From positions 56,544,001 to 56,608,000 of the forward strand of contig OZ024747.1 in assembly GCA_964016885.1 (NCBI GenBank): a stretch of 64,000 nt of DNA, given 5' to 3'. The notes beneath the pieces are model-generated. The model searched no databases, had not been told where the DNA came from, and was given only the letters and a program-made list of their open reading frames with translations. This document shows, one piece after another, positions 351-38,412 of the stretch. The position numbers were made by a program, and so were the translations under genes. How positions within the stretch are numbered: the stretch's first letter is position 1; each line of letters begins with the position of its first letter. The stretch comes from Eledone cirrhosa (taxonomy: Eukaryota).

Positions 351-455
351 AACGAAGGAGTTGTGGTAAACAACCAGATGGACCATAACGCACCAGAGTA
401 TTCAATAGGGTAGTAGAAACGCTTGAGCTCTGCCGTCGGGGGTCTTACTTTTTCC
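351..455. mobile_element. Unclassified (TA)n-embedded short element, copy 1
   Basis: (TA)n-AACGAAGG ... GAAACGCTTGAGCTCTGCCGTCGGGGGTCTTAC..TTCC-(TA)n. Same termini as 16791-17055 and the same right end as 38334-38412. Confidence 0.7.
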
Positions 456-614
456 TATATATATATATATATATATAAGCAAAGGGATATTTAATTTGTT
501 GGTAATTCAACAAATATATATATTTATAACTGATTCGAAGCACTATCCAGGTAAAACTTGAACTGTTAAGATCTCCTTCCTGGATATGTCAATATTTATA
601 AAACAAACTTTGTA

Positions 615-671
615 TTTTATCTGATGAAAGCGTACCAAAGTGTTGGTACCCTTGAAATATATATAATAGAA
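615..671 (+). ncRNA. Type I hammerhead ribozyme motif (Penelope-like/retrozyme type)
   Basis: TTTTAT-CTGATGA-AAG C GTACCAA agtg TTGGTAC C CTT-GAAA-TATATA-TA-ATAGAA. Core boxes are intact; stem I TTTTAT/ATAGAA, 10-bp stem II with one C-C mismatch, palindromic stem III, AUA cleavage triplet. Confidence 0.8.
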
Positions 672-1079
672 TAAATATGGTTTTATAAACATAGTTTCCA
701 TTTATTAATATCATTGATATATATATATATATATATATACACACACATATATATATATATATATATATATGGTGGCTGCCAACTCGTTTTCAAGTACGGC
801 CACTACTTTATGTCCATGTAGGAGAACCCTTACCGATGCGCTGAACGAGTGTGACTTTTTAGTTCAGCCAGCGACTTGAAAACTCAGGTACAAACACTAC
901 ACTTGTGACAGTTATTGACACATAGTGCTGGGCCCATGGTACCATGTGACGACAAGTGCAGAGAGATCTCCAGATATAAAGCAATGCCTGTGCCGTGAAG
1001 CTTTTATAGTGAGCAAAGGCACTGCACAAAGCCAGTCCCACTCTCTTAACCAAGATGATATTTACCAAAAAGAAGAACA

Positions 1080-1175
1080 AGTCAACATCATTGGATACCA
1101 TCAGGGTTGCAGGTGTTATATCAGAGTTTTCCTTCTCCTAGAATTCTGCCTTGACAAAGGCTAAGGGGTCATCTC
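1080..1175 (-). mobile_element. RTE-related 5'-region fragment
   Basis: Reverse complement contains TTAGCCTT..GGCA..TCTAGGAGAAGGAAAACTCTGA, recalled as typical of RTE/BovB-type 5' regions. Confidence 0.45.
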
Positions 1176-33792: not shown

Positions 33793-34490
33793 TGATGCTG
33801 ATGATGAGAATGGTGATGACGATGATGATGGTGATACTGATGACGGCAATGATGATGATGGCAATAAAGAAGTGACAACGATGATGATGATGGTGATAAA
33901 GAAAATGATAATGAGGTGATGGCTCTGACGATGACGGTGACAACGATGATGATGATGATGACAAGGATGATGAGAATGATAACATTGACAATGTTGATGA
34001 TGATGATGGCGATAAAGAAGACGATGGTGATGATGATGACTATTATGATGATGACTGTTGATGATGATGATGATGGTGATAAAGAATATGATGGTGATGA
34101 TGATGACTATTATGATGATGATGACTGTTGATGATGATGACTGTTGATGATGATAATGATGGCGATGAAGAAGATGATGGTGATGATGATGACTGTTGAT
34201 GATGATGATGATGGTGATAAAGAATATGATGGTCATGATGATGACTATTATGATGATGACTGTTGATGATGATGATGATGATGGCGATGATGATGACTAT
34301 TATGATGATGACTGTTGATGATGATGATGATGATGATGATGGCGATGATGATGAAGATTATGATGGCGATGATGATGACTATTATGATGATGACTGTTGA
34401 TGATGATGATGATGATGATGATGGCGATGATGATGAAGATTATGATGGTGATGATGATGACTATTATGATGATGACAATACAGATGATGA
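33790..34490. repeat. Degenerate (GAT)n microsatellite
   Basis: Directly visible. Confidence 0.95.
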
Positions 34491-36679
34491 ACAAGAGGAA
34501 AGGAATAAGAATGAGAATAAAAAATAGAATATTTCTCTTTTAATACTGAAATTACTTTAGAAGGAAATATGAAAAATAAATTTTTAAAAAAGAAGATAAT
34601 ATGAATAGGTAAAAAATCTATTACGTAGACTGACAACTCATCAACTAGAACCTCACAGCCCCTTTAGTCACCATCCCACTAGAACTCCCACAGCCCCTTT
34701 AGTCACCATCCCACTAGAACTGCCACAGCCTCAAAGCCAAACTATTTCATTACTGATGATTATTTTATTATCGAACAAATTTAGAGAATGAGCTACATAT
34801 ATATATATATATATATATATATATGTGTGTGTGTGTAAATATATATATATATATATATTTATATTTATATATATTTATATATTTATATATATATATATTT
34901 ATTTATATATATTTATATTTATTTATATATATATATATATTTATTTATATATATATATATATATATATATATATATATATATATATATATATATATATTT
35001 ATTTATATATATTTATTTATATATATATATTTATATATATATATATTATATATATACATATGCATATATATATATATACATATATATATATATATATATA
35101 CATATATACATATATATATATATACATACATATATATATATATACATACACATATGCATATATATATATATATATATATATATATATATATATATATATA
35201 TATATATATATATATATATATATATATATATATATATATACATATATATATATACATATATATATATATATATACATATATATATATATAATATATATGT
35301 GTGTGTGTAAGTATATATGGATGTGCGTATAGATATGCATGTATATATATGAATGTATACAGGAATATCTAGGTGTATCTCTCTCTCTCTCTCTCTCTCT
35401 CTCTCTATCTCTCTCTCTCTCTCATAAATATCTGTGTGTGTGTGTGTGTGTGTATAGGTACATACATATACACATACATACATACATACATACATACATA
35501 CATACATACAGACAGACAGACAGACAGACATACATACATACATACATACAGACAGACAGACAGACAGTGATGAGTATATGTAAAATCACATAGAATGTGA
35601 GAGGAAAACCAGCAGTAAATTAGGAAGTGTGAAAATTTATTCATGATCAAAATGAAGGAAAAAAGGAAATCTTTTTAAAGCAGTTAGTGTTGCTACTAAA
35701 TTGGAGTGGAATTTAATGAAATTTTCACAGACTTTCAGGGCATACATACGTGTGTAGGAGTGTCTATATATGTATACATGCAAGTATATATATGAATATA
35801 TATATATATATATATATATATATGTATATGTGTATATATATATATATATGTATATATATATATATATATATGTATATATATATATATATATATATATATA
35901 TATATATATGTATGTATATATATGTATATATATATATATATATATATATATATGTATGTATATATATGTATATATATATATATGTATATATATATGTATA
36001 TATATATATATATATATATATATATATATATATATATATATATATATATATATATATATATATGTATTATATATATATATGTATATATATATGTATATAT
36101 ATATATATATATGTATATATATATATATATATATATATATATATATATATATATATATATATACATATATATATATATATATACATATATATATATATAT
36201 GTGTATATATATATATATATATGTATATATATATGTATATATATATATGTATATATATATATATATATATATATATATATATACATATATATATACATAT
36301 ACACACATACACGCATGTATATATATATATATATATATATATATATATATATATATATATATAACATATATATTTTCTTGTGAAGGTATCTATCTATTTA
36401 TGTTGTGTTACCATGGGGAAAATTATAATTTCATAATATGAAAGAAATTGAAGAAAAAATCCAATTTCGGATAAATGAAAAAGATGTGTTTGTGTATGTG
36501 TCACTGTTTGAGTGTGCATGCCTGTGATATATGTGTGGGTATGTCTGCGTGTATGTGTACATCTGTGTGTGTATGTGTACATATGTGTGTGTATGTGAAC
36601 GTCGGACAGTATATAATTTTATGATCAGATTCATTTACATGTATCTACATAATGTCTCTTTATCTCTCAAGGTAGAATT

Positions 36680-38340
36680 TTCTATCTATCTACCTATCTA
36701 CCTATTACCTATCCATCTGTGTCTAGATCTATGTATCTATCTCTCTATCTATTTATGTATCTATCTCTCTATCTATCTATCTATATATCTCTCTATCTCT
36801 CTATCTATCTACTTATGGCCTATCTTATATCTATCTCTCTATATATTTATGTATCTATCTCTCTATCTCTCTATCTATATATCTATCTATCTATCTATCT
36901 CTCTATCTATATATCTATCTATCTCTCTATCTATCTATGTATCTATCTCTCTATCTCTCTATCTATCTATCTCTCTATCTCTCTATCTCTCTATCTATCT
37001 ATCTATCTATCTATCTATATACTTATGGCCTATCTTATATCTATCTCTCTATCTATCTATGTATCTATCTCTCTATCTCTCTATCTCTCTATCTCTCTAT
37101 CTATCTATATACTTATAGCCTATCTTATATCTATCTCTCTATCTATCTATGTATCTAAGGGCTGGTGGTTAGCAGGTGCGACGACGCCCTCGGAGAAGCG
37201 CTAGTCATGGAGGAAGACGAACTGGCCAACCTGTTCGGTAGGACATTCAGCCCGGGACCCATGGATAACTTCCAGAGGTCCCTGGCCTGGCAATGCTACA
37301 GAAGGGCTCTGCCCGTTCGAGAAAGGCTCTACAGACACGAGTGCCCGGGTAGGGACCCATCGAAAAAGATCTGTCCCAGATGCGTGTGCGACGAGGAAAC
37401 TGTTGCACACGCACTGGTACACTGCTCGGGCATTGCCGATCTGTGGGGCTATGTCGAACAACTGCTGTCAAGGGTGGGACCCATCCGGTTGACCACCGAG
37501 TCTATTGTAACGATCAAGCCGCCTCCCCTTTTCAAAAACGAAGAAGAGGCGGTGTTTCTGTGCGTAATAGCCATGGCGAAAGAGGTTGTATGGTGGACGC
37601 GTCTGAAAGGACTGAGGTCAGACACCTTTCTCTCTGGCCAACAACTGCTCCGTTTCTTCCGATATCATTTCGGAAGAAGGATCAGCATGGAGAGAGAGGT
37701 GCTGCACCCCAGCCGTTTCTATGAAAGGTGGGTGAAAGTGGCGAGAATGGCCCGTGTGAATGGGCCTTCACTCTACATCAGACTATAGGTGAGGAAGATG
37801 AAAGACCAAGGGAGCACCCCTTCTCTGTGCTCCTGAGGAGAAGGGTTGCACACTTTTTTCGGGGGGGTGTGCGACCCCCCAAGGCGCCTCCTCTCTATTG
37901 AGGACTTTGTTATAAATTTTATTTTTTGTTATATTTTATTTTATTTTTATATATTGTTATTGCCTCCTCCTTATTGAGGACGCCTTGTTTTGTAAACTCC
38001 CCCCATTGTACTTGTCCCACTTTTGATGCCCTGGTGGCAAATAAAAGAAACATATCTATGTATCTATCTATCTCTCTATCTCTCTATCTCTCTATCTATC
38101 TATCTATCTATCTATATACTTATGGCCTATCTTATATCTATCTCTCTATCTATCTATCTCTCTATCTATATATCTCTCTATCTATCTATCTCTCTATCTA
38201 TCTATCTGTATACTTATGGCCTATCTTATATCTATCTCTCTATCTATCTATGTATCTATCTCTTTATCTATCTATCTATCTCTCTATTTATCTATCTATA
38301 TACTTATTACCTATCTTATATCTATTTCTCTATCTATTTC
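36680..38340. repeat. (TATC/TC)n array with recurring TACTTATGGCCTATCTTATATC unit, interrupted by a Tx1 insertion
   Basis: The unit recurs at about 36810, 37020, 37110, 38117, 38211 and 38301. Confidence 0.9.
37158..38052 (+). mobile_element. 5'-truncated Tx1/L1-clade LINE with 14-bp TSD
   Basis: ORF 37165-37788 has FQRSLAWQCYRRALPVRERL..CPRC..EETVAHALVHC. TATCTATGTATCTA lies at 37144-37157 and 38053-38066. Confidence 0.9.
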
Positions 38341-38412
38341 TGGACCGGACATCTGGTCCAGAAATAGCCGTCGAAACGGCTTGAGCTCTGCCGTTGGGGT
38401 CATACCTTTTCC
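38334..38412. mobile_element. Unclassified (TA)n-embedded element, copy 3 (right end only)
   Basis: 13-bp hairpin CTATTTCTGGACC/GGTCCAGAAATAG, continuing as CCGTCGAAACGGCTTGAGCTCTGCCGTTGGGGTCATACCTTTTCC-(TA)n. Confidence 0.7.

Follow-up and report, generated by a model that had tools for sequence, protein, structure and literature searches.

The 64-kb window analyzed here (positions 56544001-56608000 of contig OZ024747.1, in the ~3.0-Gb genome of Eledone cirrhosa) holds three short inserts that share a right end followed immediately by a (TA)n run. The original prediction, made on the letters of this window, had set them apart as an unclassified mini-element. Our analysis places them instead within a known kind of retroelement, as they are, judging from sequence comparisons, almost certainly the termini of a Hydra-clade Penelope-like element (PLE). 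As a whole, and with a probability of about 0.8, we explain them as 5'-truncated ends of this element, set head to head in (TA)n, that would result from priming on two target strands and from run-off at the 5' end of the element RNA. The features of the three copies are given below in window coordinates; stems, loops and the cleavage site refer to a predicted hammerhead ribozyme, while tailed and tail-less refer to the 3' tail of the element.

285..350, (TA)n target to the left of copy 1
351..417, minus strand, inverted tailed arm of copy 1: the true 3' end of the element, ~68 nt, with an internal 4-nt deletion
416..455, plus strand, tail-less arm of copy 1, which starts with GAAAC, takes in stem III, then the GUC predicted to be cleaved and the 3' strand of stem I, and stops at the short end TTCC/TAT
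14734..14863, plus strand, donor of the first filler piece of copy 2, 130/130 bases identical
15257..15298, plus strand, donor of the second filler piece of copy 2, 41/42 bases identical
16761..16790, (TA)n target to the left of copy 2
16791..16817, minus strand, inverted tailed arm of copy 2, in which AACGAAGG is fused to GCCGTTTCGACGGCTAATTC by an internal deletion of ~100 nt, as compared with intact arms
16820..16994, plus strand, junction filler of copy 2, in two pieces with sources at 14734-14863 and 15257-15298
17003..17055, plus strand, tail-less arm of copy 2; 17003-17058 is identical to the long copy L046 at 56/56 bases
38334..38345, minus strand, 12-nt remnant of the inverted arm of copy 3, beside a (TCTA)n array, its outer part gone
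38346..38355, junction filler of copy 3, 10 nt
38356..38412, plus strand, tail-less arm of copy 3, which begins at GTCCAGAAATAG, one base past the A of the initiator-like site

These short copies, referred to here as stubs, follow the layout (TA)n, inverted tailed arm, junction, tail-less arm, (TA)n, and it is the junction between the arms that forms their variable interior. The coordinates and the right end stood as originally described; the interiors, described as completely different, are however not unrelated sequence. The interior of copy 1 is the element's own tail, inverted, with ~68 nt joined to the forward arm at GAAAC; positions 352-417 align to the tail of L046 on the minus strand. 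In copy 2, the interior is DNA whose donors are located 1.5-2 kb upstream, and as matches to this filler elsewhere in the genome reach 88% identity at most, we consider it to have been copied locally. Splicing was ruled out as its source, since 14863 is not followed by GT, nor is 15257 preceded by AG. The donor region (14734-15298) is itself part of an older repeat, with 563 first-look candidates and scored matches of 73-88%. Terminal inverted repeats had been said to be absent, but inverted repeats are present: copy 2 carries a perfect 20-bp pair (16798-16817 with 17004-17023) and many genomic copies are near-perfect palindromes. Two of the copies start with (TA)n-AACGAAGG, as had been noticed, while copy 3 instead adjoins the (TCTA)n array (38053-38337, with a 94-bp higher-order unit), and it may be through this array that the inverted arm lost its outer part. 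No open reading frame (ORF) pieces of the family were found in the window by tblastn.

Genome-wide, the ends are far more abundant than chance would allow. The 21-nt right-end pattern gave 50,880 exact matches, with none for the reversed control, and TATATAACGAAGG gave 39,813, against 239 for its control. Around the right end, the 30 loci that were examined include many back-to-back pairs, and many of them read past TTCC into 77 nt more, ending CCTTCGT-TAT; when loci were instead chosen on TATATAACGAAGG, 29/30 ran on as an inverted tail. The enrichment of AACGAAGG was thus correctly foreseen but does not mark a separate left terminus, as this sequence is the true 3' end of the element read on the opposite strand and is enriched because it is the reverse complement of that end. 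The element has two fixed ends, each located at an internal TAT, with the Penelope tail as the 77 nt between them. There are 21,091 short ends with TATAT directly after them and 17,697 arms running on into the tail; insertions of the family number at least 21,000 genome-wide. From 90 tail-anchored loci, one of which lacked the anchor, we obtained 89 insertions. A tail-less opposite arm was recognized by script in 55 of these, and by eye in ~8 more. The total length was 180-216 bp in 32/55 measured insertions, and the same 7-nt subfamily mark was present on both arms in 30/33 (shuffle mean 11, maximum 18).

Long copies tie the right end to a 3.6-kb element whose ORF combines a reverse transcriptase (RT) of the telomerase-like kind with a GIY-YIG-type endonuclease, in agreement with the suggestion that the inserts are truncated Penelope-like termini. 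In the long copy L031, a 709-aa reading frame lies upstream of the same end, and its 5' region returned 1,020 first-look candidates in the genome, 40 of which were scored and were 95-97% identical, excluding self. Among 20 long copies that were mapped, a 3.5-kb body ends at either of the fixed ends; a partial copy usually precedes the body through a constant junction, and an inverted arm is often present as well. Long copies thus display pseudo-LTRs (long terminal repeats), that is, partial tandems together with inverted 5'-truncated copies.

The L031 protein carries RWR at 26 and DKT at 108 (each kept in 28/30 aligned proteins), YRDD, the linker CxCX5C (CNCPDRSIC at 563), YIG, CxxC (CNLCSE at 661) and CxH (LNKKDELVTACKH at 679), the last two flanking the catalytic E and N. 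The endonuclease is C-terminal, in the same ORF as the RT, and reads VIYQ...YIG with a downstream R, H, E, N pattern; with a single cysteine between VIYQ and YIG, there is no CCHH, and CX2-5CxxC was not found in the protein. The predicted structure of the ORF has a mean pLDDT (predicted local distance difference test) of 88, and its best Foldseek match is telomerase RT (TERT; E 7e-9). Homologs number 145; among the 120 listed, identity is 31-52% and nearly all lack a name. According to Craig et al. 2021 (PMC8557442), Hydra-clade marks are RWK/R, DKT for DKG, CxCX5C for CX2-5CxxC, no CCHH, and CxxC with CxH. It is because the RT and GIY-YIG ORF carries these motifs that we assign it to this clade, with which it also shares the single ~700-aa ORF, CxxC and CxH on either side of the catalytic E and N, insertion into (TA)n, a hammerhead close to the 3' end, a tail on one side only, and copies that are partly tandem or are inverted and 5'-truncated. 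Naiad/Chlamys PLEs were excluded, as the endonuclease motifs are C-terminal rather than N-terminal.

Some outcomes weigh against this assignment and should be considered with it. A Pfam scan of the query ORF returned no families; the Pfam GIY-YIG model was matched in 3/30 homologs, weakly (best E 0.0015), and not in the query itself; and a PDB sequence search using the ORF alignment gave no matches. Among 21 long copies, none has a full-length ORF that runs unbroken from the methionine at which it should begin, although some of the breaks may be assembly errors in homopolymers. The family also departs from the clade as described (PMC8557442) in being ~3.6 kb rather than generally <3 kb, in its 1.3-kb 3' region, and in its 77-nt tail, where 30-40 bp is typical. 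The closest families in print are those of Octopus. The present one is distinct from Hydra-1_Obim of Octopus bimaculoides, since the 3' end and the hammerhead of that 2507-bp element differ throughout (by eye; its core is ctgaagag); the two proteins look only distantly alike, again by eye, in the excerpt of the supplement (PMC8557442). We therefore regard it as a new family within the known Hydra clade, which may be in print elsewhere, Repbase and Dfam being outside the comparison.

Further proteins of this kind lie beside copies of the family: a 759-aa ORF at L062:16-2300 (+) and a 428-aa ORF in L056 near 237 (-) end like other Hydra-like proteins, and the genome seems to hold several Hydra-like families. 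A related but distinct end, GATCTAGCTGTCGAAACAGCC...GGGGTCCTG...TTTTCC-TATA, recurs beside family copies (L007:1300-1400, L020, L182) and probably belongs to a sister family with the same anatomy.

The expectation that a variant hammerhead has TAGCCGTC-GAAAC as its 3' half is supported by the predicted fold of the long copies. Long arms read ACCCC-YUGANAA-G..CGGCUA-loop-UAGCCG.C-GAA-ACGGCU-loop-AGCCGU-C-GGGGU, which as a type I hammerhead has 93% of cells paired, as compared with 18-57% for slid controls. The 5' half, for which CUGANGA had been proposed, reads UUGANAA instead; its position 7 takes all four bases, and the core has U3 with A8 in most copies and C3 with A8 in a minority. Stem III is ACGGCT/AGCCGT (6 bp), and loop II is ~37 nt. 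The hairpin AGCCGT-CGAA-ACGGCT, originally described as the fold of the right end in two copies, holds as an alternative, as the predicted minimum-energy fold was the hammerhead in 2/4 long copies and this hairpin in the other two. That the element carries a type I U3-A8 hammerhead holds as a predicted fold, against which it should be noted that there are no compensatory pair changes in 23 distinct hammerheads (the copies being too alike), that folding stability is not unusual (z -0.5 and -1.4), and that an Rfam scan of 4 loci gave no hammerhead model, with below-cut-off matches only, mostly to AT-repeat microRNA models. The U3-A8 core, long loop II and 6-bp stem III differ from Hydra-clade hammerheads, U3-A8 being found in 0/26 of those in File S2 of PMC8557442. 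The core, the type I form and the pseudo-LTR are shared with the Cercyon PLEs of Schistosoma (Cervera and De la Pena 2014, PMC4209133), whose minimal motifs lack a stable helix III, unlike the 6-bp helix III and the ~37-nt loop II with promoter-like motifs found here. The subfamily of L015, L032 and L152 carries the C3-A8 core mismatch, and is yet common among the 5'-core matches listed; if it is inactive, cleavage is not required for spread.

Upstream, the arms break off sharply. Among 171 that extend 128 nt or more from the tail end, 156 go no further than 148 nt and 14 reach at least 160, and in a separately fetched subset 55/56 stop by 148 nt. In the genome as a whole, the hammerhead 3' half has 50,880 matches and the 5' core about one tenth of that number (4,898). 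The site of the limit is TT[T/C/G]AGTCC, with the A 138 nt from the tail end, and TATTTA[A/T] was seen by eye 29-31 nt upstream of it; both lie inside hammerhead loop II. By the usual consensus sequences, we take the first, which contains TCAGTC or TTAGTC, to be initiator-like and the second to be TATA-like. We lean, by a small measure, towards the arm limit as the putative transcription start of the element RNA. Three observations speak against this: a cap-derived G was not seen at the proposed start (a G precedes 2/8 arms that end at the A); arm ends are not confined to one base but spread over ~12 nt, with peaks at 134 and 139; and of 14 long copies with an upstream repeat reaching the cleavage site, 11 pass the proposed start, one stops there and two stop at the cleavage site. 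If the start is correctly placed, the 11 that pass it imply that, for long copies, the template must have been read-through, circular or jumped. Splicing as a cause of the limit, whose site resembles an acceptor, was ruled out, as the upstream junction sequence varies. A promoter within the pseudo-LTR is known for Penelope (Schostak 2008, PMC2377424; Arkhipova 2013, PMC3846280), and Adineta Pen2a has a TATA box and an initiator-like site (PMC3846280). Palindromes at inverted junctions and host DNA capture are also recorded in these sources, which, in the portions available, do not relate clustered truncation points to the start site.

A smaller group, amounting to a few percent of the arms, stops at the predicted cleavage site. 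Among the 89 insertions, 4 tailed arms end there, 96-97 nt from the tail end. Pattern counts gave 208 stops at the site, 11 five nt upstream and 95 five nt downstream, and should be taken as rough, as the patterns admit differing shares of flanks; in 37/95 of the downstream stops, the opposite arm ends in ACCCC, which is the same site (by eye). Two of 20 long copies begin at the cleavage site or one base before it. These stops fit with some of the templates having been hammerhead-cut. Weighing against this, 2 of 30 inspected matches were not true stops, with ~7 blurred by GG microhomology, and stops with an ATAT flank number 15 among the first 100 listed of the 208 at the site, 18 in all at 1-2 bases upstream and 2 at one base downstream. 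As ATAT-flanked stops at the site are only ~2x those just upstream, pausing of the RT at the foot of stem III may contribute.

Taken together, these data suggest a mechanism in which both strands of a (TA)n target would be nicked and each would prime reverse transcription on element RNA, with start points, in either case a TAT, at the tail end for one strand and 77 nt upstream for the other. The two cDNAs would run off the RNA 5' end, set by the TATA-like box and initiator-like site in loop II, and their 3' ends may then be joined by microhomology-type repair, giving short overlaps, fillers or locally copied DNA; a minority of the RNA templates would already be hammerhead-cut. We consider such a two-primer origin of the stubs probable. 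The short end is taken as the first-strand start because in L051 and L062 arms of 3.5 kb end there opposite a shorter arm. In vitro, both AT-rich target strands are cut and extended by the Poseidon element, and the two ends of the Penelope tail are RT start sites (PMC11167929). Anolis Poseidon PAc (Frangieh et al. 2024, PMC11167929) likewise has an AT-rich target and two internal RT start sites that bound the tail, and its shorter product from a shorter RNA 5' end can be likened to the arms described here. Unlike in PAc, whose start sites lack target homology, both ends here lie on an internal TAT, and where that study found no RNA-seq reads ending at the hammerhead site, genomic arms are in excess at the site here.

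Alternatively, a single cDNA could snap back and copy itself, its second arm joining the target at the first TAT, as in the self-priming put forward for Penelope inverted repeats (PMC3846280). This would account for the many near-perfectly palindromic junctions and predicts identical arms, as were seen in 30/33 insertions; in the commonest subfamily, moreover, no TAT precedes the one at the short end when reading downstream from the arm limit. Yet arm lengths are often unequal, junctions hold fillers of up to 175 bp, the tail's other TAT sites do not commonly serve as ends, and the 3.5-kb arms of L051 and L062 end at the short end opposite shorter arms, so that we hold fold-back to be unlikely. 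Somewhat less unlikely, though still doubtful, is that the arm limit reflects an RT stall or an RNA break in loop II, with the excess at the cleavage site being a pause at the foot of stem III. The spread of stops over ~12 nt and the 18 stops located 1-2 nt upstream of the cleavage site are in line with such stalling, as is a small hairpin predicted in loop II, whose 3' strand overlaps the stop zone. This hairpin, however, is AU-rich and differs between subfamilies, most arms pass the GC-rich stems I-III downstream, and the TATA-like and initiator-like motifs are found at promoter spacing.

The abundance of ~195-bp palindromes, with 32/55 totals at 180-216 bp and one junction common to 3/55 (L095, L106, L135), could also point to a self-propagating non-autonomous family, similar to a retrozyme or a miniature inverted-repeat transposable element, rather than to independent truncations. 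As junctions mostly vary from copy to copy, the 5' core of the hammerhead is missing from the stubs and the filler of copy 2 is unique to its locus, we find this highly improbable. Non-LTR retrozymes, consisting of tandem units that each hold a whole type I hammerhead (10.64898/2026.07.22.740005), were excluded, the stubs being head-to-head and without the 5' core. A non-autonomous DNA element, whether Crypton-like with a tyrosine recombinase, a Helitron/Helentron or another rolling-circle element, had been offered in the original prediction and would agree with the short asymmetric ends, the inverted repeats near them and the lack of a poly(A) tail. It hardly deserves credence now that the ends are contiguous with an RT and GIY-YIG-type ORF, graded 5' truncation and tandem copies are marks of a retroelement, and a recombinase or Rep-helicase ORF, as a Crypton, DIRS or Helitron-like element would carry, lies between the ends in 0/24 long loci mapped.

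Carrying the two-primer mechanism further, we tentatively suggest, at somewhat less than even odds, that the stubs are a genomic record of a step resembling the retroviral 'strong-stop', that long copies derive from hammerhead-cut, circular or read-through RNA, and that arms ending at GUC/GGGG are in vivo traces of U3-A8 cleavage. On the two target strands, the RT would prime 61 and 138 nt downstream of the RNA start and run off the 5' end ~9/10 times; with its promoter inside loop II, the mRNA would therefore begin with half a ribozyme. We found in the literature neither a strong-stop reading of Penelope with a hammerhead nor Penelope-with-hammerhead together with 'twin priming', most subscription journals being outside the search, and the former may be in print elsewhere. 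How inverted and tandem Penelope copies form, and what the hammerhead does, are stated as open questions (PMC8557442; PMC11167929). The family is ordinary as such and its value is mechanistic: tens of thousands of junctions yield base-level predictions of where the RNA starts, of the two sites at which the RT begins and of the position of cleavage. What this analysis adds is the limit of the arms at the putative start site, the excess of stops at the predicted cleavage site and the filler copied from local DNA.

Other repeats are also present in the window. The (TA)n runs beside copies 1 and 2 are shared by the ends of another repeat family (600-715 and 16560-16760), which carries a motif resembling a canonical hammerhead (CTGA[T/A]GA, stem, GAAA, TATATA); this is probably a further Penelope-like 3' end, so that the insertions would be nested. 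Two more cores of canonical hammerhead-like form, CTGATGAAGGACTAGCGTCCGAAAC at 18416-18392 (-) and CTGAGGAAGGGCTTATGCCCGAAAC at 31603-31627 (+), are likely the ends of other Penelope-like families. Reading frames that by eye resemble protein fragments of the LINE (long interspersed nuclear element) retrotransposon type lie at 17248-17784, 20885-21589, 37159-37788, 47445-48284 and 49787-50515.

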